NCBI GenBank assembly: GCA_036001225.1
Contig: DASYUM010000339.1
Span: forward strand, 2,808 to 66,807
Direction: 5' to 3'
DNA length: 64,000 bases
Source: Candidatus Methylomirabilota bacterium
GTDB taxonomy: Bacteria; Methylomirabilota; Methylomirabilia; Rokubacteriales; DASRDR01
How positions within the stretch are numbered: the stretch's first letter is position 1; each line of letters begins with the position of its first letter. Positions 17,837-57,120 of the stretch are shown in pieces. Position numbers and translations under genes: made by a program. Below the pieces are notes generated by a model. The model saw nothing but the letters and a program-made list of their open reading frames with translations, did no database searches and had not been told where the DNA came from.

Positions 17837-18753
17837 TCAGCCCCGCCGCCGGAGGCAGGCGCCGGTGACCGCGGCGATCCCGGCCAGGGCGTCCCAGCCC
17901 GAGGTGTGCCCGATCGCGTCCACCGCGTCGAGGCACGTGGCGAGTCGCGGCCGATCGGCGCTCGACACCGCCGCCAGCGTGTCGTGGAGCGCGGCGGCGC
18001 CCTCGCCGGCCGCCGCGCAGGCGAGGTGAGCCCGGCTGATGACCGTCGTCCGCTCGCGGGCCACCGGGAGCGCCCAGCCGGCCAGTGCCCGCGCGAGGTC
18101 GGCTCGGTCCACCGCGTGGAGGGCGAGCAGGATGCCGGCCACGAAGTCGTCGCCCGCCGGCGTCAGTCCCGGGCCGAGGCCGACGAGGCTCGCCGCCTCG
18201 GCCGGCGGCGGCGATGGGGCCCCGGCCCCGGAGACGGCCGCGAGGCCGGCCTCGAGCCAGTCGAGCAAGGGGACGATGCCCCGCCAGGCCAGGCTCAGCA
18301 GCGGCGGGTCGGCCGGGCGGGGACGCCGGGCGGAGACCGCGGTGGCGAGCGGCGTGATCAGCCGGCCGAGGCCCTCGGCCGGCGCCCGCTCGCCGGCGGC
18401 CGCCGCCAGGACGGCCACCCCGCGGGCGAAGTCGGCCGAATGCCGGGCGCCGGGCAGCGGAGCGGGGTGCCAGAGGGCGGCCCCGCCGAGCTCGAAGACG
18501 AAGCGCCCGTCGACGCGCAGGGTCGCGCCGTTGGCCTCCACACCCGCACCGGGGAGGAGGCCGCTCGCTTCCCAGTCGAGCGCCGACGGCAACACGCCCA
18601 GCGCGTTGAGCGGGCCGGCGCCAAGCCCGCGGGGACCGAGGCAGACCACGGACCCGCCGGCGTCCCGGCAGTAGAAGCTCCGGCGAAAGACGGCGAGGAC
18701 GCGCCAGCGCGTCTCACCGGCGAGCGCACGGCGAGCCGGGCCGCCGATCAGCA
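17837..18753 (-). CDS. DUF2877 family protein (YlbF/AllH-like, a partner of FdrA in oxamate carbamoyltransferase)
   Basis: N-terminal motif RVLAVFRRSFYCRDAGGSVVCL resembles the YlbF VVHSVFRHAVNVQLNDGQLVSL motif. The gene overlaps the fdrA start. The start codon is uncertain (GTG at 18751-18753 chosen). The long ORF's N-terminal extension is the translated intergenic repeat. Confidence 0.55.
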
Positions 18754-18857
18754 CGACGGGCACCGGACGCGGAACGAGGGCCACCGGCAGCGCGACGCCG
18801 GTTGCAGCTCGCACGGCGGGACCGGCGGTGGAACCGGGCTGAGGCCCGAGCAGCCCT

Positions 18858-18928
18858 AGGACGCAGGGAGGAGGCGGGCCGAGGCGTATGCCGCATACGT
18901 TGAGGCCCGCCGATGACCGAGGACGACG
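18858..18928. repeat. Intergenic structured repeat element, copy 1: GGCGGGCC-GAGG-CGTATG-CCG-CATACG-TTGA-GGCCCGCC nested hairpins
   Basis: A second, longer copy is at 55341-55468. The outer stem shows compensatory changes between copies (GGCGGGCC/GGCCCGCC versus GGCGGCCC/GGGCCGCC). Confidence 0.65.
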
Positions 18929-18956
18929 GGATGCGACGGGCATCGGCCCGGGCCGG

Positions 18957-20204
18957 TCAGCCGATGAAGCGCCAGTCATAGGGCGCCCGGGAGATAACCT
19001 CCGGCCCGTGGGCGGTGACGATCAGCTGTTCCTCGAGCTTGACGCTCTCGCGGCCGTTTTCCTCTCCGACCAGGGCCTCGACGCAGATCACCATGTTCTC
19101 CTGGAGCACCTCCGGGTCGTTGCCGAAACCACTCCAGCTCATGTCCGGGAAGTAGATCGCCGGCCACTCGTCGGACATCCCCGCGCCGTGGGCCAGCACC
19201 ACATAGCGGCTCGCCTTGTACTTTTCGGGGAACGCCGGCGCCTTCTCGGCGATCTCCTGAAAGCCCATCCCGGGCCGAAACAGCGGAATCGATTCCTGGA
19301 TGAAGCGGTGGGCGAATGCGTAGAGCTCCCGCTGCTCGGCGGTGGGCGGGCGGTCGCCGCAGAGGTAAGTCCGGGAGATGTCCGCGAAGTAGCCGAGCGG
19401 ACCTGCCATGTCGGTGTCGAACGCGACCAACTCGCCGTCGCGGACCAAACGGTCGGACGCCGCCTGATACCAGGGATTGGTGTGTCCCCCGGCGGTCAGC
19501 AAGCGGCCGTCGGCGTGCTCCCCGCCCAGCCGGATGTTGGTCCCGGTGAGGACCGCCCACAGCTCGTTTTCGGTCACGCCGGGGCGGATCGCGTCCCGGA
19601 GCGCGCAGATGGCGGCGTCGACGACGGCGCAGGCCTGCCGGATCAGCGTCAGCTCATCCGGGGTCTTGATGGCGCGCGCCTTCTCGACCGCCACCCGGGC
19701 GTCGGCCAGCCGGAGCTGCTGCGCCCGGAGCGCCTCGAATCCGACGAAGTCGAGGCGATCGATCCCGATCCGCTCCCGGCCCAAGCCCAGCTCGTCGATG
19801 GTCGCCTTGAGGTCGGCCGCCCACCGCCGGGCGGCCTCCCCCAGGTTCCGCCCACAGGGGAAGAAGTCCCAGGTCCGGGCGTTCCGGACGTCGAGGGTGG
19901 CGTCGCCGGCCAGGCTGTCGGTGACGCCGCCGAAGAGGATCGCCCGCCCGGTGCGGGGGACGAGGGCGTAGCGGTAGTAGAAGCGGAGGCCGTAACCGGT
20001 CGAGGAGTCACGGGTGCCGGTGGCGTAGCGGATGTTGAGCGGGTCGTAGAGAAGGGCGGCGCCCAGCTCCGCCCGCCCGAGCTCGGCCTGCAGGCGGGCC
20101 AGCCGCTCGCGCTTCAGCCGCGCGGCGTCGACGCGCGGCTCGTAATCGACGATCTGCTGGCCTACGAGGTCCCGCTGGTGCACCCCCGTGACTTCGCTCG
20201 CCAT
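18957..20204 (-). CDS. M24-family metallopeptidase (creatinase/prolidase N-domain + Xaa-Pro aminopeptidase-like)
   Basis: 415 aa. M24 metal-ligand context (…HGAGMSDEWP…, …VICVEALVGEENGRESVKLEEQ…). Confidence 0.75.
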   Translation of the reverse strand: MASEVTGVHQRDLVGQQIVDYEPRVDAARLKRERLARLQAELGRAELGAALLYDPLNIRYATGTRDSSTGYGLRFYYRYALVPRTGRAILFGGVTDSLAGDATLDVRNARTWDFFPCGRNLGEAARRWAADLKATIDELGLGRERIGIDRLDFVGFEALRAQQLRLADARVAVEKARAIKTPDELTLIRQACAVVDAAICALRDAIRPGVTENELWAVLTGTNIRLGGEHADGRLLTAGGHTNPWYQAASDRLVRDGELVAFDTDMAGPLGYFADISRTYLCGDRPPTAEQRELYAFAHRFIQESIPLFRPGMGFQEIAEKAPAFPEKYKASRYVVLAHGAGMSDEWPAIYFPDMSWSGFGNDPEVLQENMVICVEALVGEENGRESVKLEEQLIVTAHGPEVISRAPYDWRFIG

Positions 20205-26604: not shown

Positions 26605-28871
26605 GGGTGTTCTCCTTTTCGGGCGACGAGCGCCCGCCACACCCGCTCCGGGGTGAGCGGGAGGTCCGTGATGCGCACGCCCACGGCCCGCGCGAGCGCG
26701 TTGGCGATGGCCGGCGCGGTGGGGAGGAGGCCGCTTTCGCCGATCCCCTTGGCGCCGTACGGCCCCGGCCCGTCGCCGTTCTCGACCAGGATGCTCTCGT
26801 ACTCCACCGGCAGGTCACCCATCACCGGCACCCGATAGTCGATGAGCGACGGGTTCACCAGCTGACCGCCGTCGTAGACCAGCTGCTCGAAGAAGGTGTG
26901 GCCGAGACCCATCATGGCGCCTCCCTGCTCCTGCGCCTCGCACTCTCGCGGGTTGATCGCCCGGCCGACGTCGGCGACCGAGACATAGCGGAGCACGCCG
27001 ACCGCCCCCGTCTCCTCCTCGACCTCGACCTCGGCCGCCGCCATGCCGACCTCCCAGAACGGCGCCTCGCCGCCCAGGCGGGCCTGCCCCCGCTCGCCGC
27101 GATAGGTGCCCCGCCCGATCAGCTCGCCCCCCGGCATGCCGAAGTGGGCGGCGAGCGCCTCGGGGTAGGTCAGCGCGCCGGCGGGCGCCACGATCCGCCC
27201 GTCGCGCAGGGTCAGGCCGGCCCGGTCGCCCCCGAGCCGGCCGGCGGCGATGGCGAGGAGCTGGTCCCGGACGTCGCGGGCCGCGGCGAGGACGGCGAAG
27301 CCCAGCAGCGTCGTCGAGCGGCTCGCGCTGGTCGCCTGGTCGTAGGGCCCCAGGCCCGACTCCGGGCGGGCCGCCGCCACCCGACCGAGGGGAAGGGCCA
27401 GCTCCTCGGCGACGATCTGCAGGAGCACCGTGCGGACACCCTGGCCGCACTCGACGGTCCCGGTGAGGAGGGTGGCGCTCCCGTCGGCGTGCAGCCGCAC
27501 CATCGCGCTCGACACCGAGGGGGCGAGCGGCGCCTTGATGGTGCAGGCCAGCCCTTTCCCGCGGCGGGGCGCGGCCGGCGGCGCCGACCAGCCGATCGCG
27601 GTCGCCGCCTTCCGCAGCCCCTCGGCGAGGTCGCAGTCGATGGGCAGGTCGCCCTCCATGAACGTCTCCCCGCGCCGGAGCAGGTTCTTCACCCGCAGCT
27701 CGAGCGGGTCCATCCCGAGCCGTTCGGCGAGCACGTCCATCTGCGACTCGTAGGCCCAGGCGAGCTGGGGCACGCCGTAGCCGCGAAAGGCGACGCTCAC
27801 GACCGTGTTCGTGTAGACGCCGTAGGCGTCGATGCGGAGGTGGGGGAGGCGATAGGGCCCGGCCGAGGTGTAGGCCGACTTCTGGACGACCCGCGGCCCC
27901 ACGTCGGCGTATGCCCCGAGCTGGTAGTGGATCTCGCCCTGGCGCGCGACGAGAGTGCCGTCGCGACGGGCGCCGGTCTTGAGCCGATAGCGCACGGCCG
28001 CCCGCCGCACCGACTGGAAGGCCTCCTCGGCGGTGAGGGCCAGGCGCACCGGCCGCCGGACGGCGGCGGCGAGCGCGATCACGAGCGGCTCGATCTTCGT
28101 GTAGGACTTGTTCCCGTAGGCGGCGCCGAGATAGGGGACGATGACCTGGAGGCGGGCCAGCGGCACTCCGAACATCGCGGCCAGCTCCGCGCGCACCGGG
28201 AAGGGGTGCTGGGTCGACGCCCAGACCGTGATCCCCTGGCGATCGACCCGGGCGATGGCGCAGTGCGGCTCGAGCGCGCAGTGGTGCGCCATCGGGAAGG
28301 TATAGGTCTGCTCGACCACCAGATCGGCCTCGGCGAAGGCGCGGTCGGGGTCGCCCCGCTCGTAGTGGAAGTGGTGACAGACGTTGGTCCCCGCAATCGG
28401 GCGGAGCGTCCCCAGGTCCCGGAAGTGGCCGGCGGGGCGGGGCGACTCGTGTAGCAGCGGGGCGCCCGGCGCCAGCGCCTCGTCGAGGGTGATGACGACC
28501 GGCAGCTCGGCGAGGTCGACGGCGATCCGGCCGAGCGCCGCGTCCGCGTGGGCCGCCGTGTCGGCCACCACCGCCACCACGGGTTCGCCGGCGTAGCGCA
28601 CCACGCCGTCGGCCAGGAGCGGCTGGTCCTTGAAGGCCGGACCGTAGTAGAGGTCCTTCACCGGGAGGTCACGGGCGGTGAGGACGCCGATGACGCCGGC
28701 CGCCCGCGCGGCGCCGGCGGTGTCCACGCTCACGACGCGCGCGTGGGGAAGCGGGCTCCGCCAGAGCTTGGCGTGGACCATCCCGGGGACCACCAGGTCG
28801 GTGATGAACCCCGCCCGCCCGGTCGCCTTGGCCGGCGTATCGACGCGCGGCGCGGCGGTGCCGACGATCAC
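26601..28871 (-). CDS. Xanthine-dehydrogenase-family molybdopterin-binding large subunit (CoxL/XdhA-like), paralogue B
   Basis: GTG 28869-28871 overlaps the paralogue-A stop (GTGA). Aldehyde-oxidase/XDH a/b hammerhead and Mo-binding motifs (VAFRGYGVPQ, GQGVRTV…, ESGLLPTAPAIANAL). The 1478-aa ORF in the track is an artefact fusing A and B. Confidence 0.8.
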   Translation of the reverse strand: MIVGTAAPRVDTPAKATGRAGFITDLVVPGMVHAKLWRSPLPHARVVSVDTAGAARAAGVIGVLTARDLPVKDLYYGPAFKDQPLLADGVVRYAGEPVVAVVADTAAHADAALGRIAVDLAELPVVITLDEALAPGAPLLHESPRPAGHFRDLGTLRPIAGTNVCHHFHYERGDPDRAFAEADLVVEQTYTFPMAHHCALEPHCAIARVDRQGITVWASTQHPFPVRAELAAMFGVPLARLQVIVPYLGAAYGNKSYTKIEPLVIALAAAVRRPVRLALTAEEAFQSVRRAAVRYRLKTGARRDGTLVARQGEIHYQLGAYADVGPRVVQKSAYTSAGPYRLPHLRIDAYGVYTNTVVSVAFRGYGVPQLAWAYESQMDVLAERLGMDPLELRVKNLLRRGETFMEGDLPIDCDLAEGLRKAATAIGWSAPPAAPRRGKGLACTIKAPLAPSVSSAMVRLHADGSATLLTGTVECGQGVRTVLLQIVAEELALPLGRVAAARPESGLGPYDQATSASRSTTLLGFAVLAAARDVRDQLLAIAAGRLGGDRAGLTLRDGRIVAPAGALTYPEALAAHFGMPGGELIGRGTYRGERGQARLGGEAPFWEVGMAAAEVEVEEETGAVGVLRYVSVADVGRAINPRECEAQEQGGAMMGLGHTFFEQLVYDGGQLVNPSLIDYRVPVMGDLPVEYESILVENGDGPGPYGAKGIGESGLLPTAPAIANALARAVGVRITDLPLTPERVWRALVARKGEHP

Positions 28872-31162
28872 GGCGGCGGCCCGTCGCCACGCGCCGCCTG
28901 CAGGGCGCGCCAGACGCGCTCCGGGGTCAGCGGCAGCTCGGTGAGCCGGACGCCCACCGCGCGGGCGAGGGCGTTCCCGACCGCGGGGGCCACGCAGAAC
29001 GTCCCGCTCTCCCCCACGCCCTTCGCGCCGAAGGGGCCGGGTCCGTCGCCGTTCTCGACCAGCAGCGTGTCGAGCCGGTCCGGCAGGTCGGCGAAGGTCG
29101 GCAGGCGGTAGTCGATCAGCCCGGGATTCAGGAGCTGGCCCGCCTCCCCGACCCGGGCCTCGAACAGAGCGGGGCCGAGTCCCTGCATCGCCGCGCCCTC
29201 GTCCTGGGCCGCGCACTCGCGCGGGTTGATGGCCTGCCCCACGTCGGCGGCCGAGACGTACCTCCGCAGCCGCACCGCGCCGGTCTCTGCATCGACCTCG
29301 ACCTCGGCGGCGCCCATCCCGGTCTCCCAGAACACGGTGGCGCCGCCCAGCGTCCCCGACCACGTCGTGGGGACGAAACTGCCGACGCCGGTCACCTCGC
29401 CGCCGACGAAGCCGAAGTGGCCGCGGACGACCTCGGCCACCGTGAGTGAGTGCGCGCCATGGACGACGCGGCCGTCCCGGACGTCGAGGGCCGCGGGGTC
29501 GGCGCCGAGGCGGTCGGCCGCGAGGGCGCAGAGCTGGAGCCGGGCATCGCGGGCGGCCGCCTGGACGGCGAGCCCCATCACGGTCGTCGAGCGGCTGGCG
29601 CTGGTCCCGTGGTCGTACGGCGTGAGCGACGTATCGGGGAGGGCGACGACGACGCTCTCGAACGGAACCCCGAGCGTCTCGGCGGCGATCTGGGCGAGGA
29701 CGGTCTGGGCGCCCTGCCCCACCTCGACCGTGCCGGCCAGGAGGCTCACGCTCCCGTCGGCGTGGATCCGGACCACCGCGCTGGACACCGTGTGTGTCCC
29801 GCCGCCGTCCTTCATCGCGACCGCCAGGCCCCGGCCGCGGCCCGGCCCGAGCGCGGCGCCCCAGTCCACCGCCTGGGCCGTCCCCTGGAGACCCTCGGCG
29901 AGGTCGCCGTCCATCGGCGTGTCGCCCGCCACGTATTCCTCGCCGCGCTTGAGCAGGTTCTTGAGCCGGAAGGCCAGCGGGTCGAGGCCGAGCCGCTCGG
30001 CGAGCACGTCCATCTGCGACTCGGAGGCCCAGGTGACCTGGGGCACGCCGTAGCCCCGGTAGGCGCCGGCCGGGACGTTGTGGGTGTAGACGCAGCGCGC
30101 CTCGATCCGGAGCGCCGGGATGCGGTACGGTCCCGGCGCGCGGTACCCGGCCTTCGTCGCGACGCGGGGGCCGATGTCGGCGTAGGCGCCGGTGTCGAGG
30201 ACGGCGTCGCACTCGCGCGCCAGCAGCGTCCCGTCCCGCCGGACTGCGGTCCGGAGCCGGACCGTCACCGCGTGGCGGGTGACGGTGCGCGCGCTCTCCT
30301 CGAGCGAGAGCGCCAGGCGCACGGGCCGGCCGACTCGGGCGGCCAGCGCGGCGGCGATCGGCTCGATCTTGGTGTAGCACTTCCCGCCGAAGGCCCCGCC
30401 GACGAGGGGGACGACCACCTGGACCCGGGCGAGGGGGAGATCGAAGATCTCCGCCAGCTCCTTCCGGACCGCGAACGGGTGCTGGGTGCCGGTCCACACG
30501 GTGAGGCCGTCCTCGTCCAGCCGCGCCACCGCGCAGTGGGGCTCGAGGGCGTGGTGGGAGAGCGCGGGATAGCGGTAGACCTCGTCGACGACCAGGTCGG
30601 CCTCGGCGAATGCCCGGGCGCGGTCGCCCCGCGCGTACTCGAAGTGGTGGCAGACGTTGGTTCCCGGCACCGGCCGGAGCCCGGCGAGGTCGCGGAAGCG
30701 TCCGGCCCGCTCGCGCTGGGGATGGACCAGGGGCGCGCCGGACGCCAGCGCCAATTCGGCGCTCGTCGCGGCCGGCTGCTCCTCGTAGCGGACCTCGAGG
30801 AGGCCGACGGCCGCCTCCGCGTGGGCCTCGGTGTCGGCGACCGCGGCGACCACCGGCTCCCCCGCGAAGCGGACCTCCTCGTGGGCGAGGATCGGCTGGT
30901 CCCGGAAGGCCGGGCCGTAGTACAGGCGCGCGACGGGCAGGTCGGCGGCCGTGCAGACGGCCAGGACGCCGGGGGCGGACGCCGCGCGGGACGTCTCGAC
31001 GCCGAGGAGCCGGGCGTGAGGGACCGGGCTTCGCCACAGCTTGGCGTGGACGAGGCCCGGGAGCACGAGATCGCTGACGTAACGGGCCTCGCCGGTCACC
31101 TTCTCCCGGGCGTCGAGTCGGGGCACCGAGCGGCCGACGACGCTCAGGTGCTCAGCGGCCAT
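28868..31162 (-). CDS. Xanthine-dehydrogenase-family molybdopterin-binding large subunit (CoxL/XdhA-like), paralogue A
   Basis: 764 aa with motif GAYRGYGVPQ. Co-directional with the 2Fe-2S and FAD subunit genes. Confidence 0.85.
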   Translation of the reverse strand: MAAEHLSVVGRSVPRLDAREKVTGEARYVSDLVLPGLVHAKLWRSPVPHARLLGVETSRAASAPGVLAVCTAADLPVARLYYGPAFRDQPILAHEEVRFAGEPVVAAVADTEAHAEAAVGLLEVRYEEQPAATSAELALASGAPLVHPQRERAGRFRDLAGLRPVPGTNVCHHFEYARGDRARAFAEADLVVDEVYRYPALSHHALEPHCAVARLDEDGLTVWTGTQHPFAVRKELAEIFDLPLARVQVVVPLVGGAFGGKCYTKIEPIAAALAARVGRPVRLALSLEESARTVTRHAVTVRLRTAVRRDGTLLARECDAVLDTGAYADIGPRVATKAGYRAPGPYRIPALRIEARCVYTHNVPAGAYRGYGVPQVTWASESQMDVLAERLGLDPLAFRLKNLLKRGEEYVAGDTPMDGDLAEGLQGTAQAVDWGAALGPGRGRGLAVAMKDGGGTHTVSSAVVRIHADGSVSLLAGTVEVGQGAQTVLAQIAAETLGVPFESVVVALPDTSLTPYDHGTSASRSTTVMGLAVQAAARDARLQLCALAADRLGADPAALDVRDGRVVHGAHSLTVAEVVRGHFGFVGGEVTGVGSFVPTTWSGTLGGATVFWETGMGAAEVEVDAETGAVRLRRYVSAADVGQAINPRECAAQDEGAAMQGLGPALFEARVGEAGQLLNPGLIDYRLPTFADLPDRLDTLLVENGDGPGPFGAKGVGESGTFCVAPAVGNALARAVGVRLTELPLTPERVWRALQAARGDGPPP

Positions 31163-38647: not shown

Positions 38648-40321
38648 TCAACGCCGTCTCGGCCGGCCCAGCCCGGCTGCCAGTTCTTCCAACCGCTGCT
38701 GCAGCCACGCGAGGTCCTCGATCGCGTCCGTCAGATACGGGGACGCGCCACGCGCGCGGGCGACGATTCGCTGCGCCTCGGCGTTCAGCCGGGCTTGCTG
38801 CGCCACGAGACGGCGAAACCCCTCGGGCATGTCGGCGGCGAGCCGTCTCTGGCGCGCCAGGAGGCGACCGAGATCGACCAGGCCCTTGGCCGCGGTGACG
38901 ACCGCCGTCACCGCCTCCTCGGCCCGAGCCGGGGAGACCTCGCCCAGGCTGCCCAGCCAGGCGCCGATGAGGCCGAGCGTGAGGTCCTGGATCCGCCGGT
39001 CGCTCTCCTGCAGATCCTCGGAGATCTTGGGAAGGCTCTCTTTCAGCTTCAGCAAGCTGGCGATCAGATCCTGCAGCCCGTCCTGCAGGGTCTTGTAGCT
39101 GCCGGCCAGGCCGTCGTCGTCGGGAAACTCGCGCCGTCGACCGTTGAAGCGCTCGATGAGGTCCCGCAAGCCGTGCAGCAGGTCCTCGAAGCTCTTCACC
39201 AGCTCCTCGTCCGGCGCGTTGCGCACGAGGTCCTCGAAGCTGTCGAGGAGCTTCTCGAACTGATGCAACAGGTCTTCGAAGCTCTTGACCAGGGCCCAGG
39301 GAGGCGGAACGTTGATCCCCAGCGCCGCATCGAAGCTCACGAGCAGGTCGACGAGCGCGTGGAGCAGCTTCTCGAAGCTGAGGCGCAGCGGCCGGTCCTT
39401 CGGGGCGACGCGCTTCACGAGCCCCTCGAAGGTGGAGAGCAGTCGCTCGCATTCCTTGAGGCGGTTTTCGAACTGGCCCACGATCTCCGGATGCTGGGCG
39501 GCATGCTCCTTCACCAGATCCTCGAAGCTGCCGAGGAGCGTCTCCAGGTCGCGCAACCGGTCTTCGGCCCCGACCAACAGGGGCCGGTCGTTCGGCTTGA
39601 GGGGCGGCGCCGCCGGCAGCAGCCGGTCGAGCTCACCGAGGAACTCCACCAATAGAAAGGTCAGGATGCCCAGGAGCCCGTCGAAGCTCTTGACGCGATC
39701 GTAGTCGGTGGGTGTCTCGCGCTTCACCAGGTCTTCGAAGCTCTTACAGAGCTTCTCGCTTCCTCCGAGGAGCTCGAGGAAGCTCGCGACGCGGGCGCGG
39801 TCGGGCGGCAGCGGGAGCACGAGCTTCGCGAAGCTGTCGATCAGCAACAGGTGGCGCTCGACGCGCTCCTCGAAGCACTGGAGCAGCTCCGGAGGCAGTT
39901 CCGGGAGACGCCGCAGCAGATCCTCGAGGCTGAGGAGCAGCTTCTCCGCGCGGTGGAGCAGGTCTTCGAAGCTGGCGACCAGCCGGTAGAGCTCCTTGGG
40001 CCAGTTGGGCTGATTCGGCCACTCGCGCCGCAGGATCCGGTGCAGCTTGGCTTCGAACGCCGCTAAGGCGCTCTGCAGCCCGATGATCTCGTCCTGAAAC
40101 TCGTCGGCCTTGTCCTTGTCCGGGGGCGCGGCCTTCAACTTGGCCTCGGCCGCGTCGAGCTTCTCCTCGCTTTCGCGGATGTCGTCCTCTTCCTTCTTCG
40201 CCTCGTCGAAACTCGGATCGTCGAGGAGCCGCCGGTACTCGCGCAGCACGGCGCGGAGCTGGGCGCGGGCGCTCTCCAACGGCGGCCCGCCGGGCGTGGA
40301 TGTTCGTCGCCGTCGAGTCAT
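38648..40321 (-). CDS. Hypothetical 557-aa repeat protein: about ten irregularly spaced (K)SFE(D/K)L(L/V)(H/K) helical repeats between coiled-coil-like N- and C-terminal regions
   Basis: ATG 40319-40321 is preceded by GGAGGAG. SFEDLL/SFEDLV/SFEKLL/SFDGLL recur. The DNA shows matching tcgaagct(c/g)tt… repeats. No signal peptide or TM segments. Lower GC than the flanks. The plus-strand ORFs over this region are antisense artefacts. Confidence 0.65.
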   Translation of the reverse strand: MTRRRRTSTPGGPPLESARAQLRAVLREYRRLLDDPSFDEAKKEEDDIRESEEKLDAAEAKLKAAPPDKDKADEFQDEIIGLQSALAAFEAKLHRILRREWPNQPNWPKELYRLVASFEDLLHRAEKLLLSLEDLLRRLPELPPELLQCFEERVERHLLLIDSFAKLVLPLPPDRARVASFLELLGGSEKLCKSFEDLVKRETPTDYDRVKSFDGLLGILTFLLVEFLGELDRLLPAAPPLKPNDRPLLVGAEDRLRDLETLLGSFEDLVKEHAAQHPEIVGQFENRLKECERLLSTFEGLVKRVAPKDRPLRLSFEKLLHALVDLLVSFDAALGINVPPPWALVKSFEDLLHQFEKLLDSFEDLVRNAPDEELVKSFEDLLHGLRDLIERFNGRRREFPDDDGLAGSYKTLQDGLQDLIASLLKLKESLPKISEDLQESDRRIQDLTLGLIGAWLGSLGEVSPARAEEAVTAVVTAAKGLVDLGRLLARQRRLAADMPEGFRRLVAQQARLNAEAQRIVARARGASPYLTDAIEDLAWLQQRLEELAAGLGRPRRR

Positions 40322-40411: not shown

Positions 40412-42673
40412 CTAGGCCTTCGCCGCCCGGAGGGCGCGCCAGACGCGCTCGGGGGTGAGCGGCAGGTCGCGGATGCGGACGCCGGTGGCGGCGGCGACGG
40501 CGTTGGCGATGGCCGGCGCGACCGGGACGATGCTGCCCTCGGCCACGCCCTTCGCCCCGTGGGGGCCGGGGCCGCCGCCGCCCTCGACGATCACCGCCTC
40601 GAGCGAGTCCGGCAGGTCGGAGAAGAGCGGGAGCCGGTAGTCGACGATGCTCCCGTTGACGAGCTGGCCGTCCTCGTAGACCAGCGCCTCGAAGAGCGCC
40701 GGCCCGAGGCCCATCACCACGCCGCCCAGATCCTGGCCTTCGACCCCGTCCGGGTCGAGGGCGCGGCCGGGGTCGGACACGGTCACGTAGCGATGGACGG
40801 TGAGGGCGCCCGTCTCGCGATCGACCGAGACCTCCGCCGCGCCGAGCCCGATCTCCCAGAAGCTCGCCCGGGCGCCGAGCGTGGCGCGCTCGGCCGCCGG
40901 CCGGTAGTAGCCGTGGCCGATCAGCTCGCCGCCGGCGTCGCGGAAGAAGCGCACGATGACCTCGCCGAGAGTGAGGCGCCGGTCGCCGGCGCGGACGGCG
41001 CCGTCCTCCAGGCGGCAGGCTTCCACCGCCACGCCGAGCGCCTCCGCCGCGATCGCCCGCGCCTGGTCGGCCACCTGGCGGGCCGCCGCCTGCACGGCGT
41101 GACCGAGGAGTGCGGTCCCCCGGCTGGCGTTGGTGCGCTGGTCGAAGGGCGTGACGCCGGTGTCGGGCGCCGTCACCGCCACCTGCCCGGGCGGGATCCC
41201 CAGCTCGGCCGCCGCGATCCGCGCGAGCACGCTCTGGATCCCCTGGCCGAGCTCGGCCGAGCTGGCCAGCACGGTGGCACTGCCGTCGCCGTGCAGGCGC
41301 ACGATGGCCGTCGAGGAGGTCCGGGTGCCGCCGCCGTCCTTGATCGCGCAGGCGACGCCGACCGCCCGGCCCCGCCCCGACGCTCCCGGCAGCCGCGAGA
41401 CGAGGGCCTCGAGCGCCGCGCCGAGGTCGCTGTCCACGGGCCGGTCACCCGGCGCGTACTCCTCGCCGCGCTGGAGGAGGTTCTTCCGCCGGAGGGCGAC
41501 GGGATCCATCCCGAGGGCGAGGGCGATCGCGTCCATCTGCGACTCGTACGCCCAGGCGACCTCCGGCGTGCCGAAGCCGCGGTAGGCGCCGGCCGAGACC
41601 GAGTTGGTGAAGACCGCATAGGCGTGGACCTCGACGTGCGGCACCCGGTAGGGGCCGACCAGCCGGTAGCCGGCCTTCTTGGCCATGCGCGGCTCCTGGT
41701 TCGCGTACGCCCCCGCGTCGAGGTGGATCTCACCGCGCCGGCCGAGGAGCGTGCCGTCGCGGCGCACCGCCGTCTGGATGCGCACCCGGGCGGCGTTGCG
41801 GCAAAGCGTCCGCGCCGTCTCCTCGGCCGAGTAGAGGACGCGGACGGGCGCCCAGGCCTTGCGCGAGAGCGCGGCGGCGAGCGGGATCACGGCCATCAGC
41901 TCACGGCTGCCGAAGGCGCCCCCCACGTCGGGCACGACCACCCGCACCCGGCTCTGGGGCAGGCGGAACATCTCGGCCAGCATCTGGCGCGTGGCGAACG
42001 GGTATTGGGTGCCGGCCCAGACGGTCAGCTGGCGCCCCTGGTGATGGGCGATCGCGCCGTGCGGCTCGAGCGGATGGTGGTGGACGCTGGGGAGCGTGAA
42101 GGTGTCGTCGAAGACGAGGTCGGCCTCGCGGAAGGCCGCCTCCGGGTCGCCGCGCCGGTAGGCGAAGTGATGGCAGATGTTCCGGGCCAGGTCGGGCGCC
42201 ACGTCCTGGACGTCGGGGAAGAGCGTCGAGCGGGGCCGCGCCTCGTGCAGGACGGGCGCGCCCGGCGCGAGCGCCTCGTCGATGGACCGGACGGGCGGGA
42301 GCGGCTCGTAGCGGACGGCGATCCGGCCGAGCGCCGCCTCCGCCGTCCGCGCATCGACCGCGGCGACGGCCACCACCGGCTCGCCGGCCCAGCGGACGCG
42401 GTCGATCGCGAGGAGGGGCTGGTCGCGGATCGCCTGGCCGAAGTAGGGGTCGATGTCCGCGAGATCGGCGGCGGTCAGCACGGCCACGACCCCGGGCAGC
42501 CGCTCGGCGTCGCCGGTCTCGATGGTCAGGATCCGGGCGTGGGGGTACGGGCTGCGGAGGACCTTCCCCTCCACCATGCCGGGGATCGCGAGGTCCGTGG
42601 TGTAGCGGGCGCGTCCCATCACCTTCGCGCGGGCGTCGTGCCGCTCGAACGGCGCGCCGATCGCGCCGCTCAT
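40412..42673 (-). CDS. Xanthine-dehydrogenase-family molybdopterin-binding large subunit, paralogue C (orphan: no adjacent small or FAD subunit)
   Basis: ATG 42671-42673 overlaps the upstream LLM stop (ATGA). Motifs GAYRGFGTPE and GQGIQSV. ~45% identical to paralogues A and B. Confidence 0.8.
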   Translation of the reverse strand: MSGAIGAPFERHDARAKVMGRARYTTDLAIPGMVEGKVLRSPYPHARILTIETGDAERLPGVVAVLTAADLADIDPYFGQAIRDQPLLAIDRVRWAGEPVVAVAAVDARTAEAALGRIAVRYEPLPPVRSIDEALAPGAPVLHEARPRSTLFPDVQDVAPDLARNICHHFAYRRGDPEAAFREADLVFDDTFTLPSVHHHPLEPHGAIAHHQGRQLTVWAGTQYPFATRQMLAEMFRLPQSRVRVVVPDVGGAFGSRELMAVIPLAAALSRKAWAPVRVLYSAEETARTLCRNAARVRIQTAVRRDGTLLGRRGEIHLDAGAYANQEPRMAKKAGYRLVGPYRVPHVEVHAYAVFTNSVSAGAYRGFGTPEVAWAYESQMDAIALALGMDPVALRRKNLLQRGEEYAPGDRPVDSDLGAALEALVSRLPGASGRGRAVGVACAIKDGGGTRTSSTAIVRLHGDGSATVLASSAELGQGIQSVLARIAAAELGIPPGQVAVTAPDTGVTPFDQRTNASRGTALLGHAVQAAARQVADQARAIAAEALGVAVEACRLEDGAVRAGDRRLTLGEVIVRFFRDAGGELIGHGYYRPAAERATLGARASFWEIGLGAAEVSVDRETGALTVHRYVTVSDPGRALDPDGVEGQDLGGVVMGLGPALFEALVYEDGQLVNGSIVDYRLPLFSDLPDSLEAVIVEGGGGPGPHGAKGVAEGSIVPVAPAIANAVAAATGVRIRDLPLTPERVWRALRAAKA

Positions 42674-54222: not shown

Positions 54223-55287
54223 ATGGGCGACCGGATACGAGTGGCCCTCGTCGGGGGCGGCGCCGCCGGCAAGCAGCACCTCGAGGGGTATCGAAGCCTG
54301 CCCGAGCAGTTCGAGGTCGTGGCCCTGTGCGACGTCGCGGAGGGGGCGGGCCTGGTGGCCGAGGCGAACGCGATCCCGCGCGTCCTGACGGATTTTCGCG
54401 AGATGTGCCGGCTGGACGACGTCGACGTCATCGACCTCTGCACGCCGCCCTATCTGCACTACGAGCAGACGCTCCAGGGTCTGGACGCCGGCCGGCACGT
54501 GATCTGCGAGAAGCCCCTGCCCGCCTCGCTCGCGCAGGTGGATCGAGTGATCGCCGCCGAGAAGCAGTCGGGCCGCCGCGTGATGCCGATCTTCCAGTAC
54601 CGTTTCGGCCACGGGCTCCAGAAGCTGAAGCGGCTGGTGGAGCAGGGCGTGGCTGGCCGCGCCTATCTGACGACGGTGGAGACGGCCTGGCGCCGGCGCG
54701 CCGCCTACTACGCGGTCCCCTGGCGGGCCAAGTGGGCCACCGAGCTGGGCGGGGCGCTGGTCAGCCACGCCATCCACGCCCACGACCTGGTGTATCACGT
54801 GCTCGGGCGGGCGCGCAGCGTGTCCGCCCACATGGCCACGCTGGTGAACCCGATGGAATCCGAGGACTGCGTCTCGGCCTCGCTCGAGATGATGGACGGG
54901 TCACTCTGCTCTCTCTCGGTGACCACCGGCTCGCCGGCCGAGATCAGCCGGCACCGCTTCTGCTTCGAGAACCTGAGCGCCGAGAGCAACACCGAGCCGT
55001 ACCGCAACTCGAGCGATCCGTGGACGTTCACGGGCGACTCGCCGGCGATCGACGCGCGGATCGAGGGGGTCCTGCGCGGGTTCGTGCCCCGGCCGGAACG
55101 CTTCGCCGGCCAGTTCTCCCGGTTCCACCAGGCCCTGCAGTCGGGGACCGAGCTTCCGGTGACGCTGGCCGACGCCCGGGCGGCCATCGAGCTGATCACG
55201 GCGCTCTACCACTCGGCCCGGACGCGGCAGCCGGTCTCCTTGCCGATCCCCGCCGACCACCCCCTCTACGACGGCTGGCAGCCCTGA
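54223..55287 (+). CDS. Gfo/Idh/MocA-family oxidoreductase
   Basis: N-terminus MGDRIRVALVGGGAAGKQHLEGY. Motif EKPL. Confidence 0.8.
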   Translation: MGDRIRVALVGGGAAGKQHLEGYRSLPEQFEVVALCDVAEGAGLVAEANAIPRVLTDFREMCRLDDVDVIDLCTPPYLHYEQTLQGLDAGRHVICEKPLPASLAQVDRVIAAEKQSGRRVMPIFQYRFGHGLQKLKRLVEQGVAGRAYLTTVETAWRRRAAYYAVPWRAKWATELGGALVSHAIHAHDLVYHVLGRARSVSAHMATLVNPMESEDCVSASLEMMDGSLCSLSVTTGSPAEISRHRFCFENLSAESNTEPYRNSSDPWTFTGDSPAIDARIEGVLRGFVPRPERFAGQFSRFHQALQSGTELPVTLADARAAIELITALYHSARTRQPVSLPIPADHPLYDGWQP

Positions 55288-55340
55288 ATCCCAAAATCGG
55301 ACGACGACCGCAGGTGCGGGGCCAAGTAACGAGCATAGCG

Positions 55341-55468
55341 AGGACGCAGGGAGGAGGCGGCCCGAGGCGTATGCCGCACACGCGCGCCGCAGGACGTCGC
55401 GGGGCTGGGGCCCCGCCGTCCGTGGCGCGACACCCGAATGTGAGGGCCGCCGACGACCGAGGACGACG
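55341..55468. repeat. Intergenic structured repeat element, copy 2 (128 bp; copy 1 plus a 57-bp inner hairpin-forming insertion)
   Basis: Shares aggacgcagggaggaggcgg…gaggcgtatgccgca…ccgccga(c/t)gaccgaggacgacg with 18858-18928. Lies in the convergent gap between the Gfo/Idh gene and the ankyrin gene. Confidence 0.65.
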
Positions 55469-55500
55469 CTAAGGCGACGTTAATTGGACCCGCACTAGTC

Positions 55501-57120
55501 CTATCTGGCTCCGGCGCGGCGCAGTTCCTCCTGCACCTCGGGGGAGCGGGCGGCGTAGTCGAGGACGGACTTGCCGTCGCCGTCGCGCACGTTGACGTCG
55601 GCGCGGGCGGCGATCAAGGCGCGGACGTTTTCCAGCCGGCCCATGGTCGCGGCGCTGATCAGCGGGGTCACCCGGTTCAGGTCGCGGGCGTTGGGATCGG
55701 CGCCGCGCGCGAGCAGCAGCCGCACCGCTTCGACCGGGCACAGGCCGGCGGCGCGGTGGAGGGCGGTATAGCCGGTATCGTCCGCCATCGGCCGGGCGCC
55801 GCCTTCGAGCAGCAGACGGATGACCTCGGTATTGTCGCGCCGCTGGCATCCGCGGGCCGCCTCCGCCAGCGCGTGGCCGCGGTCGGCATTGGCGTCCGCG
55901 CCCCGCGACAACAGCCCACGGACCTGGTCGGCATTTCCGCGCAGCGCGGCGATGGCAAGCGCGCGGGGATCGGCCGGGGCCGCTGACTCGAGCAGCAGTG
56001 CAGCGATCTCGTTGCGACCCCAGTTACTGGCCGCCTGCAGCGCGGTGCGCTGGAGGCGGTCCGGCTGGTCGACCCGGGCGCCGGCGGCGAGCAGCTTCTC
56101 CACGGCTTCACGGCTGCCGCCGGTGACCGCCGCGATGAGCGGCGTGGTGTCGTTCTGCGGGCTGGCATTCACCTCGGCGCCGGCGTCGACGAGGGCGGCG
56201 ACGATCTCGGCCTGGCCGAGATTCCCGGCATAGATCAGCGGCGGTACGCCGCGATCGTCCTTGGCGTTGGGGTCGGCGCCGGCGGCGAGCGCCCGGCGCA
56301 CCGCCGCGGCGTCCCTGCCCAGGACGGCATCGAAGAGTGCCGCGGCTTTGGCACCGGTATCGTCGCGGGCGCCGGCGACTTCGAGCCGGGCGATGATCGG
56401 CGCCAAGCTCGCCTCGTGCGGCCGGCGCCGCGCTTCCAGGTGACGCGCCCAGCGCAGGGCCGACCATCCGTTCTGATCCTGCGCCTTCACGTCGGCCCCC
56501 GCGTCGATGAGTAACTCCAGCATGGCGGGATGGCCGCGCCGGGCGGCCATGATGACGTAAGAGACGGCCGGCGGCGAGGGGTTGACGCTCGCCCCACGCT
56601 CGATCAGGAGCCGCGCCATCTCGGGCGTGCCCAATCCGACGGCGAAGGACAGCTGCCGGTCGCCGGGGCGCGCGCCGGAGTCGATCAGCAGCGTGGCCAT
56701 CGGCACCTTCGAGCGCGTGACGGCGACATCGAGCGCGGTCTCGCCGCCTCGCGCCACGTGGCCGACCCTCGCTCCCTTCTCGATCAGGAGGCGGGCGAGG
56801 TCGGTGTTCCCACCCTGGGCCGCATAGTGGAGCGGCCGGTATCCGATGTCCCAATGCGGCAGCTGCTGCATCCAGCTGATGAACGCGATGAGCTCGCGGA
56901 GATCGCGGGTCGGAATTTCCGCGTTGACGTCGGCCCCGTTCGAGACGAGACGCCGAGTCTCGGCCAGGTTGCCATCGCGCGCCGCCCGCATCAGCGCGGT
57001 CATGGCATGCTCGTCGCGCTGGTCCACGCCGAAGCGACCGCAGCCGGAAGCGAGCACCAGGACAGTGAGCGGCGGAATGAGCTGCCTTCTCACGGTGCCG
57101 ATGTGTCTCACCGGCACCAT
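55501..57120 (-). CDS. Ankyrin-repeat lipoprotein (about 12 ANK repeats)
   Basis: Lipoprotein signal …RRQLIPPLTVLVLASGC. Repeated ANK consensus (TALM.AA..G..E…LL..GADVNA). Start is ATG 57118-57120 or GTG 57093. Confidence 0.8.
   Translation of the reverse strand: MVPVRHIGTVRRQLIPPLTVLVLASGCGRFGVDQRDEHAMTALMRAARDGNLAETRRLVSNGADVNAEIPTRDLRELIAFISWMQQLPHWDIGYRPLHYAAQGGNTDLARLLIEKGARVGHVARGGETALDVAVTRSKVPMATLLIDSGARPGDRQLSFAVGLGTPEMARLLIERGASVNPSPPAVSYVIMAARRGHPAMLELLIDAGADVKAQDQNGWSALRWARHLEARRRPHEASLAPIIARLEVAGARDDTGAKAAALFDAVLGRDAAAVRRALAAGADPNAKDDRGVPPLIYAGNLGQAEIVAALVDAGAEVNASPQNDTTPLIAAVTGGSREAVEKLLAAGARVDQPDRLQRTALQAASNWGRNEIAALLLESAAPADPRALAIAALRGNADQVRGLLSRGADANADRGHALAEAARGCQRRDNTEVIRLLLEGGARPMADDTGYTALHRAAGLCPVEAVRLLLARGADPNARDLNRVTPLISAATMGRLENVRALIAARADVNVRDGDGKSVLDYAARSPEVQEELRRAGAR

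Follow-up and report, generated by a model that had tools for sequence, protein, structure and literature searches.

What is the short structured repeat that occurs twice between genes of the window (the whole 64,000-nt stretch of Methylomirabilota DNA analysed here), an RNA or a mobile sequence? The preliminary description had reported two intergenic hairpins of about 70 bp, one of them enlarged, and argued from one compensatory base-pair change that selection acts on their structure, as would fit an RNA or REP/MITE-like element. It had also reckoned with its reading failing if only two copies existed, or if both came from a single segmental duplication.

The two copies in the window

Exact word matches confirm both copies at the positions originally given. 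The 18-mer GACGCAGGGAGGAGGCGG is found at 18860 and 55343, and the 22-mer CCGCCGAYGACCGAGGACGACG at 18907 and 55447 (chance expectation 0.03; none of 100 shuffles reached two occurrences). A covariance model scored at every position of the 64-kb window returned just these two copies, with 136 and 52 bits, while with default filters copy 2 was matched at full length with 91 bits. The nested hairpins fold in the manner first described; the insert of copy 2 is indeed exactly 57 nt, lies in the apical part (126 vs 69 nt between the shared ends) and makes a hairpin of its own; and ORF and Pfam placement puts copy 1 between the M24 peptidase and ylbF-like genes and copy 2 in a convergent gap, again as reported. 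The boundaries had been drawn too narrowly: the element is about twice as long, and an outer helix had been overlooked in both copies. The features are as follows.

17837–18814, minus strand: allH (ylbF)-like gene (PF11392, AllH), downstream of copy 1
18775–18832, no strand: spacer beside copy 1, diverged from the empty-site allele; BLAST blocks break at 18820 and 18948
18833–18956, plus strand: copy 1, whole inserted element (about 124 nt), a single long imperfect hairpin; covariance-model match 18826–18962, 136 bits
18834–18856, plus strand: copy 1, outer helix 5' arm, P1 CCGGGCTGAGGCCCG (18834–18848) and P1b GCAGCCC (18850–18856); pairs with 18928–18951
18857–18880, plus strand: copy 1, purine-rich 5' core TAGGACGCAGGGAGGAGGCGGGCC, comprising an internal loop, a G·A-containing helix and the P2 5' strand GGCGGGCC (18873–18880); includes the 18-mer of the genome scan
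18883–18901, plus strand: copy 1, apical hairpin P3, GGCGTATG-CCG-CATACGTT, with two fixed G·T(U) wobbles; alignment columns 58–65/70–77
18904–18927, plus strand: copy 1, P2 3' strand GGCCCGCC (18904–18911) and conserved 3' core GATGACCGAGGACGAC; 93% identity over 27 copies, outside the search word
18928–18951, plus strand: copy 1, outer helix 3' arm, P1b GGGATGC (18928–18934) and P1 CGGGCATCGGCCCGG (18937–18951), from pairing and fold
18957–20204, minus strand: creatinase/M24 peptidase gene; ORF, with PF01321 and PF00557 on an identical protein
55292–55498, plus strand: copy 2, whole element (about 207 nt); covariance-model match 55309–55503, 91 bits, full length
55292–55313, plus strand: copy 2, truncated 5' extension CAAAATCGGACGACGACCGCAG, typical of its subfamily; matches the CTAGYGCCGTTCCAACTAATCGGAGCGAATCGGGAGACGACCGCAG extension of loci L042, L079 and L082
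55314–55339, plus strand: copy 2, outer helix 5' arm, GTGCGGGGCCAAGTAACG (55314–55331), then GCATAGC; pairs with 55468–55495
55343–55363, plus strand: copy 2, core 18-mer and P2 5' strand GGCGGCCC (55356–55363), from word match and covariance model
55381–55437, plus strand: copy 2, apical 57-nt module with GC-rich hairpin CGCGCCGCAGGACG..GCGGGGCTGGGGCCCCGC..CGTCCGTGGCGCG, from direct reading and fold
55444–55495, plus strand: copy 2, P2 3' strand GGGCCGCC, 3' core GACGACCGAGGACGAC and 3' arm GCTAAGGC, then CGTTAATTGGACCCGCAC, from words and covariance model

Folded as RNA, copy 1 reaches −78.2 kcal/mol on the plus strand (z = −7.5) and −62.4 kcal/mol on the minus strand (z = −3.1). Its 3' end directly touches the stop codon of the M24 peptidase gene (TCA on the plus strand, 18957–18959), and neither a promoter-like site nor a terminator nor a U-tract was seen at this copy. 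The peptide 'MCGIRLGPPPPCVL', encoded in the minus-strand ORFs 17837–18979 and 55196–55381, had rightly been recognised as a translation of the repeat; the strand translated is the minus strand. The longer, 380-aa ORF 17837–18979, running through the repeat and carrying the repeat-encoded peptide, is spurious, and alignment to the empty-site allele indicates that the allH-like gene probably starts with the GTG at 18814. Gene callers are misled by the element, extending the allH-like ORF through it with a spurious 'CGIRLGPPPPCVL' peptide.

Copy 2 occupies the gap between two convergent stops (TGA at 55285–55287 and CTA at 55501–55503) and ends with the CTAG at 55495–55498. In its outer helix, GTGCGGGGCCAAGTAACG (55314–55331) pairs with CGTTAATTGGACCCGCAC (55478–55495); this arm sequence is unlike that of copy 1 on both sides, so the difference is compensatory. 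No relatives of the 57-nt module were found among the other loci, and the same apical site holds different modules in other copies.

The family and the fold of its plus strand

A genome scan with the 18-bp core word listed at least 101 loci, and at least 64 true members are among the matches listed, nearly all of them in metagenome-assembled genomes (MAGs) labelled Rokubacteria/Rokuibacteriota or in unlabelled MAGs with the same elements. The repeat is therefore not confined to two copies: it is present at least 64 times in at least six Methylomirabilota/Rokubacteria MAGs, always between ORFs or at ORF ends. Nor are the window copies a segmental duplication, since the element is all that the window has in common with the other loci. 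The covariance model gave 77 hits, some of them without the exact 18-mer. Viral contigs, plasmids and phages yielded no copies.

The repeat unit is a rod-like imperfect hairpin of about 123–125 nt with 70% G+C. A variable outer stem, P1/P1b, surrounds a nearly invariant purine-rich core, of which three tandem G·A motifs, the 8-bp stem P2 and the apical hairpin P3 are parts. Across 27 copies the core is 89–93% identical and the outer stem 75%; the 3' core reaches 93% although it lies outside the search word. The outer arms (22–24 nt) are complementary to each other and not palindromic themselves, and the inner P2–P3 part, 39 nt long, is by itself of REP dimensions. Optional modules are found at the apex, beside the core on either side or, in the form of an extension, at the 5' end. 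Many copies are mosaic, and partial copies and tandem arrangements also exist. The 5' flanks are unrelated among copies, save for subfamily-specific extensions without a recognisable promoter. Two subfamilies carry CTAG at both ends (CTAG-GGTCCTTGAA...GGCG-CTAG and CTAG-YGCCGTTCC...CCCGCA-CTAG). GTAG is present in some copies only (e.g. CGGTAGGACG in L011, L039 and L050), most copies having CTAGGACG or CAAGGACG. CGTC adjoins P2 on the minus strand, with a stem composition unlike that of the described CGTC families.

Structure statistics were taken from an alignment of 27 simple copies with 39 pairs. Paired cells make up 95.3% in these copies, as against 30–39% when the 3' partners are slid. 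Double, i.e. compensatory, changes occur in 19 of the 39 pairs, and none of 500 shuffles reached any of five measures. In the outer helix (columns 9–31/104–127), 15 of 20 pairs have double changes. In P3, 22 copies have U-A at 64/71 and five have C-G. The G/C swap in the GGCGGGCC/GGCCCGCC stem, from which selection on structure had first been proposed, is real, and the corresponding pair of columns, 53/82, covaries in the family (G-C in 12 copies, C-G in 11). A single compensatory pair between two copies is, by itself, weak evidence. The claim of selection on structure nevertheless holds for the family as a whole, in which the fold is conserved and compensatory change abundant. Searching Rfam, folding and looking for covariation had been proposed as checks; the latter two gave a stable fold and clear covariation. 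Rfam 15 gave no match at gathering scores in the whole window, and around copy 1 at E ≤ 10 there were only miRNA/snoRNA matches at chance level (E = 0.7–7), so that known ribozymes, group II intron domains, riboswitches and small RNAs are not supported.

Selection on the fold is limited to one strand. The P3 pairs 58/77 and 59/76 are G·U in 25–26 of the 27 copies. Altogether, 76 cells are G-T or T-G, 25 of them outside these two fixed pairs and spread over 16 pairs, while just two are A-C or C-A, and these fall at the outermost pair, which is uncertain. The three tandem G·A motifs consist of six oppositions (G·A or A·G) that do not vary; those at columns 43/92, 44/91, 46/89 and 47/88 are present in 27 of 27 copies. 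The excess of G-T over A-C, the invariant tandem G·A and the compensatory pairs mean that only the plus strand is kept foldable, and the covariance model scores 120–154 bits on the plus strand and 20–50 bits on the minus strand. We also considered a small ORF behind the purine-rich GGGAGGAGG; its ATG belongs to the apical hairpin, and many copies have something else in that place (e.g. GTACTCCCCGTAC), hence no peptide is encoded.

Strain differences, gene ends and possible vehicles

In four assemblies (L109–L112), which match the window at 99.4–99.7% identity over 4.3 kb and 3.0 kb, precisely copy 1 is missing; its insertion point lies immediately after the TGA of the peptidase gene. Copy 1 is thus a presence/absence polymorphism at the strain level, placed exactly after a stop codon. 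No target duplication is seen in this filled/empty pair. The spacer next to copy 1 shows about 13 differences and a 7-nt indel in some 45 nt, against 99.5% identity to the empty allele in the surrounding 7 kb, and the filled allele has lost the GGAGAG Shine-Dalgarno sequence that the empty one has. The JGI strain that lacks copy 1 does have copy 2. Closely related strains with either allele occur in the JGI metagenomes 3300036852–3300036864. The site of copy 2 is polymorphic as well: in a more distant strain (L118/L119), reached via cluster members of the oxidoreductase, its flanks TGAATCC ... TCCTATCTGG hold a different 66-nt sequence. At L045 and L057, the element occupies an orthologous site in two species. 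Peptidase orthologues of 63–80% identity without the element (L102–L108) are not informative empty sites, because their downstream gene is a different one.

Junction signatures are inconsistent from copy to copy: a 3-nt TCC repeat surrounds copy 2, TGA flanks L026, CTA(G)/CTA(T) flank L020, and direct repeats of 9–23 nt flank the element at about ten loci, the lengths ranging overall from 0 to 23 nt. Of 36 full-length copies, 32 have a reverse-complement stop codon (TCA or CTA) 0–6 nt from the 3' arm. In 18 copies, a convergent ORF supported by GC3 ends at the element's 3' end, and between co-directional genes the element is antisense in 16 cases and sense in four. Replication strand is unlikely to be the cause of this orientation, since at L010 two opposite copies within 1 kb each turn their 3' end toward a gene end. 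The gene between these inverted L010 copies is an acetyltransferase-like ORF and not a transposase. No transposase domain was found near either window copy, and no transposase, DDE enzymes included, among the neighbours of the 64 loci. When 456 neighbouring ORFs were clustered, the recurrent families were only those of ordinary metabolic genes (transporters, amidases, dehydrogenases). A search for RAYTs in about 810 kb made up of loci and window, a small share of the genomes, by tblastn with an approximate, distant E. coli RayT query and by the YxxxNP motif gave no match.

In its presence or absence between near-identical strains, the repeat acts like a small mobile sequence, not like a unique RNA gene. 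The absence of copy 1 from near-identical assemblies, the abutment on stop codons and the mosaic architecture favour the REP/MITE-like half of the original proposal, and an RNA form may matter as well. Overall, the two stretches probably belong to a single, hitherto undescribed repeat family, interspersed, palindromic, mosaic and non-autonomous, which would be REPIN/ERIC-like and mobile.

Several traits nevertheless recall RNA. A cis-acting structure under host selection, whether it stabilises 3' ends, serves as attenuator or terminator between two cistrons or two convergent genes, or modulates translation of the upstream gene as a stop-proximal hairpin, with dispersal being secondary, would agree with stems covarying around invariant loops (the usual signature of functional RNA), with G·U wobbles and tandem G·A motifs as classic elements of RNA helices, with the core conservation across species and with copies within a few nucleotides of stop codons, like REPs thought to act as RNA (PMC3733652). 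However, 16 of the 20 copies between co-directional genes have their foldable strand in antisense, so that mRNAs would carry its complement, with G·U turned into C·A and G·A into C·U mismatches; moreover, a U-tract terminator is absent, copy 1 is dispensable in 99.5% identical strains, and big unrelated modules are tolerated within the element. On balance, we regard this explanation as unlikely. Still less can be said for small RNA genes read from the plus strand, multi-copy RNAs acting in trans or as antisense, e.g. by presenting the Shine-Dalgarno-like GGGAGGAGG. The structure is conserved in a strand-specific manner, this purine-rich loop is invariant, and a transcript of the plus strand would run antisense to the neighbouring gene's 3' end; but copy 1 has no promoter-like site or terminator, the unrelated 5' flanks and the subfamily extensions offer no recognisable promoter either, no Rfam family matches, such genes do not typically show variable insertions, partial copies or an arrangement in tandem or mosaic form, and the apical ATG is not conserved and yields no peptide. 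This makes small RNA genes very improbable.

Among mobile elements, a classical MITE moved by a DDE transposase (IS630- or IS5-like) that cuts CTAG/TNA-type targets would have the long arms as terminal inverted repeats, and its association with stops would follow from TAG and TGA being among the few A/T-containing sites at 70% G+C. CTAG at both termini of two subfamilies, the TCC repeat around copy 2 and the flanks of L026 and L020 point in this direction, and size and inverted-repeat arms fit the MITE definition (PMC11602168), the arms of 22–24 nt comparing with the 10–15 bp or more asked of terminal inverted repeats. Yet the filled and empty alleles of copy 1 reveal no target duplication, and instead of a duplication of fixed length (2–10 bp) there are direct repeats of 9–23 nt, longer and more variable than expected, with flanking repeats of 3 to 23 nt elsewhere. 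With 75% identity, the arms are less conserved than any other part; they change by compensation and are not maintained as a fixed sequence for transposase binding; tolerance of G-T and not of A-C is unexpected for a double-stranded cut-and-paste substrate; and a DDE transposase was seen near no copy. We give this explanation little credence. Hardly more credible is movement via an intermediate, either structured RNA or a single strand, that would be targeted to the downstream ends of ORFs, for instance by a SINE-like retro-element with target-primed synthesis. Hints of it are the one-strand selection with RNA-type G·U and tandem G·A pairs, the invariant core resembling a protein-recognition module, the 3' junction fixed beside the stop and direct repeats of 0–23 nt that have one fixed and one variable boundary. 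To our knowledge, neither DDE nor HUH transposases are expected to give such a direct-repeat pattern.

Returning to the REPIN/ERIC-like mobile repeat, we suppose that it is selfish DNA which would spread via a single-stranded hairpin intermediate that an enzyme supplied in trans would recognise. By analogy with what is proposed for REPINs with RAYTs and for IS200/IS605, the likeliest enzyme may be an HUH/Y1-type single-strand transposase, a suggestion that we make only tentatively. Once inserted, copies would be tolerated mainly where a gene is not split from its ribosome-binding site, and the tolerated orientation would be the one whose transcript bears the weaker complement. Effects on neighbouring mRNAs, such as protection of 3' ends, attenuation between cistrons or ribosome stalling at the abutting stop, might be by-products rather than its raison d'etre.

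Several observations count against this reading. The search described above turned up no mobilising enzyme in the share of the genomes that it covered, the repeat is not a strict REPIN, and the junction signatures are inconsistent. Conservation is highest inside the element and not at its termini, the reverse of ordinary MITEs, and recalls functional RNAs or sites of protein binding. Between species, the core is 89–93% identical, compared with 63–80% for relatives of the window's peptidase, which argues for purifying selection or very recent spread. Furthermore, in most flanking genes it is the structured strand that serves as template. IS200/IS605-type elements use the lagging-strand template, and if the flanking genes were co-oriented with replication, the structured strand would not be that template.

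Significance and comparison with known systems

The Methylomirabilota (Rokubacteria), which are abundant in soil and uncultured, have large genomes, and the literature searched made no mention of interspersed repeats in them. The repeat described here marks differences at the strain level and probably breaks short-read assemblies. It combines an unusually clean case of one-strand hairpin selection, visible in the wobble asymmetry and the invariant tandem G·A pairs, with a strict preference for positions right against stop codons. Strains that naturally differ in having or lacking copy 1 allow direct tests both of how REP-like elements choose gene ends and of whether they act as DNA or RNA.

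In its logic, a stop-adjacent palindrome with one foldable strand, the repeat resembles the attC sites of integrons, and in logic only. An attC site is an imperfect palindrome of 57–141 nt that directly follows the ORF stop and always points the same way. The hairpin to be recognised is formed only by the strand opposite the coding strand, the centre of the site is of variable length, and recognition depends more on structure than on sequence. Unlike attC, the element lacks RYYYAAC/GTTRRRY boundary motifs at its ends, forms no cassette arrays and lies between ordinary operon genes, with no integrase nearby.

Closer in form are the long palindromic MITE-like repeats ERIC/IRU (127-bp), Correia/NEMIS, YPAL and RPE. 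ERIC is a single imperfect palindrome of about 125 nt; repeats of this type lie in transcribed intergenic regions, are in some cases enlarged by insertions at fixed internal sites and affect flanking mRNAs in an orientation-dependent way. The new repeat shares the single imperfect palindrome of about 125 nt, the intergenic position and the internal insertions in some copies. ERIC and Correia insert at TA with TA duplication, which was not seen at copy 1, and there is no sequence similarity. The repeat further differs in its 70% G+C, its invariant core within a variable outer stem and its strict strand-specific wobble asymmetry.

The last group to consider is that of REPs, REPINs and BIMEs. A REPIN is a doublet of 20–40-bp palindromic REPs in inverted orientation, whereas the present unit of about 123 nt has non-palindromic arms; the GTAG head is not general, the P2 stem is without the A/T first positions of the CGTC families, and what is conserved lies inside, a purine-rich region containing tandem G·A pairs. 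Since its arms are not palindromic REP units and GTAG is not general, the repeat is not a REPIN in the strict sense. The REPIN mobiliser RAYT is a Y1 HUH transposase, with which the new repeat may be associated. Like REP/REPIN, the repeat is found mainly between co-directional and convergent genes, and like REP/BIME mosaics it has no transposase inside and can form tandem or mosaic clusters that take in flanking sequence. For REPINs, compensatory hairpin changes and tandem arrays including flanking sequence are described, and ERIC and NEMIS are named as related repeats (PMC3116915). For REPs, the distance to the 3' end of the ORF is below 20 bp, and the stop codon is often part of the REP terminus itself (PMC3733652). 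The new repeat, too, is high-copy, extragenic and palindromic, able to form a hairpin in single-stranded DNA or mRNA (PMC3733652, PMC3116915); like that of REPINs, its hairpin is preserved by compensatory change (PMC3116915), and like REPs it sits a few nucleotides from ORF 3' ends with a terminus able to supply the stop codon (PMC3733652).

Architecture and conservation of the element

Inspection of the sequence places two similar stretches in the window at the positions reported in the preliminary description. Both copies carry the 5' word GACGCAGGGAGGAGGCGG, which occurs exactly twice in the window, and the 3' word CCGCCGAYGACCGAGGACGACG, which also occurs twice against a chance expectation of 0.03 (none of 100 shuffles reached two). 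The 57 extra bases in the apex of copy 2 were confirmed and fold on themselves, while the peptide 'CGIRLGPPPPCVL', encountered in the ORFs 17837-18979 and 55196-55381, is a minus-strand translation of the repeat. Only the length of about 70 bp had to be revised, as the true extent of the element is about twice as long and includes the following outer arms.

Outer helix of the two window copies
18834-18848 (+), 5' arm of copy 1, CCGGGCTGAGGCCCG
18850-18856 (+), 5' arm of copy 1, GCAGCCC
18928-18934 (+), 3' arm of copy 1, GGGATGC, partner of 18834-18856 together with the next line
18937-18951 (+), 3' arm of copy 1, CGGGCATCGGCCCGG
55314-55331 (+), 5' arm of copy 2, GTGCGGGGCCAAGTAACG, unlike copy 1 in sequence and equivalent in role
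55478-55495 (+), 3' arm of copy 2, CGTTAATTGGACCCGCAC, partner of the preceding line

In its simple form, the element makes one rod-like hairpin.

Parts, outermost first
P1, 15 pairs, with a conserved G·A opposition
Interruption of one by two bases
P1b, 7 pairs
Internal loop, 8 by 8
Run of G-C pairs in alternation with two tandem G·A/A·G motifs (GGGAGGA opposite GACGACC)
P2, 8 pairs
Third tandem G·A motif
Two G·U pairs
Apical hairpin P3

In an alignment of 27 copies, standard pairs occupy 95.3% of the cells in paired columns, as against 30-39% after sliding the 3' partners by 1-3 columns. Both-sided changes are found in 19 of the 39 pairs, and none of 500 shuffles matched the observed value on any of five measures. 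The compensatory G/C swap initially noticed between the window copies corresponds to column pair 53/82 (G-C in 12 copies, C-G in 11). The repeat is real, non-random and structured. Identity across copies amounts to 75% in the outer arms, 89% in the core outside the 18-mer search word and 93% on the 3' side of the core, which the search word does not cover. Such a pattern, with the inside more conserved than the arms, is inverted relative to an ordinary transposon.

Paired columns contain 76 G-T/T-G cells, 25 of them outside two fixed pairs and spread over 16 pairs, and only 2 A-C/C-A cells, both in the outermost, least certain pair. The three tandem motifs comprise six purine-purine oppositions, each of them invariant (27/27 copies); on the opposite strand they would read as pyrimidine-pyrimidine mismatches. 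Therefore, the + strand is the one kept foldable, which points to a single-stranded recognised form, DNA or RNA. Mutation bias was considered as a cause of the wobble asymmetry and rejected, since deamination of an exposed sense strand would give A-C on the + strand, the opposite of what is observed. Folded as RNA, complete copy 1 reaches -78.2 kcal/mol (z = -7.5) on the + strand versus -62.4 (z = -3.1) on the - strand, and DNA parameters leave this ranking unchanged.

Distribution and mosaic structure of the family

An 18-mer scan of one genome per species returned at least 101 loci. Among the matches listed, about one third were chance matches in unrelated high-G+C genomes, and at least 64 were clearly related to the window element. 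The relatives come nearly all from MAGs labelled Candidatus Rokubacteria/Rokuibacteriota (CAVPSB, JBIOTN, CAVUVU, CAVVOZ) or from CAYQDR and CAZDYT, two MAGs without a taxon label that are rich in the same element. The oxidoreductase adjoining copy 2 is identical to a Methylomirabilota MAG protein, NCBI HEV8677137.1. A single copy, with an interruption, was seen on a contig labelled Actinomycetota (L034 1083-1435; JBIOUU, MAG126). Unrelated sequence (CATCACTGCTGTCCCAATTGGTTGGG...) breaks this element after its 5' half, and there are two weak covariance-model matches; nested insertion or mis-binning of the contig could account for the arrangement.

Twenty-seven simple copies were used to build a covariance model, which gave 77 matches in the retrieved loci, including some copies without the exact 18-mer; run on the window with filters off, it detected copies 1 and 2 and no others. 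Simple copies score 120-154 bits on the + strand versus 20-50 bits on the reverse strand. The Rfam search proposed in the preliminary description yielded no family match, nor did comparison with viral contigs, plasmids and phages, and the literature searched contains no mention of such a repeat in Methylomirabilota. The window shares only the element with the compared loci, so its two copies do not stem from a single segmental duplication; the preliminary description had noted that their flanks differ.

Many copies are mosaic. In some, window copy 2 among them, the apex is replaced or lengthened by unrelated GC-rich hairpins. A 57-58-nt module with its own hairpin, CCGCCGGAGGGACGGGACGCCCGCGAGGCCGCAGGCCGAGCGCGTCCCGGCGAGCTGG, stands on either or both sides of the core (e.g., L028 2950-3125) and recurs in L002, L041, L061, L064, L075, L081 and others, always with AGGACGCAGRGA following it. 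L029 and L057 carry a small hairpin within the 5' arm, and subfamily-specific 5' extensions measure 29-62 nt. AGGACGCAGGGAGG and AGGACGACGGGATG, which flank the core on its 5' and 3' sides, resemble direct repeats of one another.

Other repeats were also seen in the window. Three blocks of about 2 kb (26731-28749, 29004-31022 and 40533-42545; 61-74% identical, repeat families D1-D5 and D8) and the pair 24677-25234/25836-26399 are presumably paralogous genes. A degenerate 71-nt unit, present six times at 39132-39982 (61-75% identical) and rich in CTCGAAGCT/CAGCAGGTC, probably lies within coding sequence, where it would specify a repetitive protein. A 94-nt direct repeat (1670-1763 and 1899-1992; 87% identical, spacing 229 nt) looks like a duplicated gene end.

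Strain polymorphism and placement at gene ends

The element is demonstrably polymorphic between strains. Four other assembled contigs encode, residue for residue, the same M24 peptidase that adjoins copy 1. Their DNA matches the window at 99.4-99.7% identity, across 4.3 kb to one side and 3.0 kb to the other, and none of the four contains copy 1. Written in gene direction, the empty allele is ...ATCGGGTGA/TCCGCGACCGGAGAGCC... and the filled one ...ATCGGCTGA/CCGGCCCGGGCCGATG ... CTCAGCCCGGT/TCCACCGCC..., so that about 124 nt were inserted directly after the peptidase stop codon; a target duplication is not recognisable when the two alleles are compared. The spacer that separates copy 1 from the allH-like start (18775-18832) shows about 13 differences and a 7-nt indel over about 45 nt relative to the empty allele, within about 7 kb that are 99.5% identical, and the window lacks the GGAGAG ribosome-binding site present in the empty allele. 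As called, the allH-like ORF (17837-18979, -) crosses the repeat, adding about 55 spurious residues beyond a probable GTG start at 18814. Its counterpart in the empty allele (L109/L110, 4226-5251) is called with a 23-nt overlap with the peptidase gene; there, a GTG some 30 nt past the peptidase stop codon is the probable start.

The JGI strain without copy 1 does carry copy 2. In a more distant strain, the same flanks of the copy 2 site, TGAATCC and TCCTATCTGG, enclose a different 66-nt hairpin-containing sequence. This second, unrelated hairpin repeat, TCCCTCTCCCCCACCGGGGAAGAGGGA (L118 1519-1590, L119 1312-1383), reappears as CCCTCTCCCCCATCCCGGGAAGAGGG in the 3' flank of the element at L099, in a different MAG, and probably represents another dispersed repeat family of Methylomirabilota. 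Two Rokubacteria species hold the element at an orthologous site (L045 6077-6214 and L057 5834-5903 with flanks), differing by an extra module and an apparent inversion of the apical hairpin. The L045 apical region CCCTCGCCGTACTCGGAGTACGCCTGCGGG approximates the reverse complement of the usual GAGGCGTACTCCGAGTACGTTGAGG, which suggests an inverted hairpin tip. Taken together, the orthologous copies and the presence/absence between strains indicate that the family comprises old, vertically inherited copies as well as recent gains or losses.

Placement was counted over 36 full-length copies. TCA or CTA lies 0-6 nt from the 3' arm in 32 of them, and a GC3-supported convergent ORF ends at this trinucleotide in 18. 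Between co-directional genes, antisense copies number 16 and sense copies 4; two copies are found in convergent gaps, one being window copy 2, which occupies the entire gap from TGA (55285-55287) to CTA (55501-55503). The stop trinucleotide is embedded in subfamily-conserved ends (...CCGCTCA, ...GGCGCTAG, ...CCCGCACTAG), and in two subfamilies the 5' extension also starts with CTAG, in which the left-hand genes terminate (L012, L077, L082). At L010, two copies within 1 kb have opposite orientations, each with its 3' end toward a gene end, so orientation tracks the local gene and not the replichore. This placement agrees with that of REPs, which lie <20 bp from ORF 3' ends, mostly between co-directional and convergent genes, and whose termini often supply the stop codon (PMC3733652). 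Selection may partly explain the orientation bias and the tight fit to stop codons, because in the empty allele the ribosome-binding site of the next gene follows the stop codon after only about 10 nt, and because a + sense RNA would be a -78 kcal/mol hairpin with a strong Shine-Dalgarno mimic.

At about ten loci (L050, L098, L075, L039, L083, L053, L094, L043, L078, L055), the first 9-23 nt of the 3' flank, counted from the reverse-complement stop codon, are found a second time upstream of the 5' arm, at a distance of 30-56 nt (e.g., GCTCATCCCCGTTTCATGGG in L050, CGGCTCAGCGGCCGGCGCGGCGG in L098, GCTCACGGGAAGATCCCCAGGG in L075, CCTCACCGCACCAC in L039); direct repeats in control segments reach at most 10. 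These junctions have one constant boundary, at the stop codon, and one that varies. A mini or degenerate 3' arm precedes the upstream repeat in L039, L098 and L093, similar to the REPIN tandem arrays 'including the flanking sequences' (PMC3116915), while L075 resembles a clean long duplication around a unit of 5' extension plus hairpin. The direct repeats could reflect either tandem duplication or a genuine target duplication of variable length.

Origin of the element and its relation to known repeats

The evidence is best explained by a new family of mobile repeats that are non-autonomous, palindromic and mosaic. It is tempting to suppose that such a strand-specific hairpin would be moved as single-stranded DNA by an HUH/Y1 transposase, and the clean filled/empty pair without duplication, the selection on one strand and the REP-like placement all speak for this. 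However, the sequence examined, which covers a small part of each genome, yielded no mobilising enzyme, the arms do not correspond to REP units, and for the neighbouring genes the foldable strand serves as template; we hold this mechanism as a tentative possibility.

Other explanations appear weaker. A cis-acting RNA under selection seems rather unlikely, a DDE-type MITE with CTAG/TNA targets quite improbable, and a family of RNA genes on the + strand very doubtful, each being in conflict with at least one tested feature. An RNA-based retro-element targeting gene ends, the most novel of the readings, is likewise quite improbable.

Overall, the element is an undescribed repeat family in an understudied phylum, and its significance would be greater if the strand-specific core proved to be either RNA or a recognition module of a new type. 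It falls within a broad known kind, the bacterial interspersed palindromic repeats, being near to REPINs/BIMEs in behaviour and to ERIC-type elements in shape, but differs from the defined families in its unit structure, its conserved part and its junctions.
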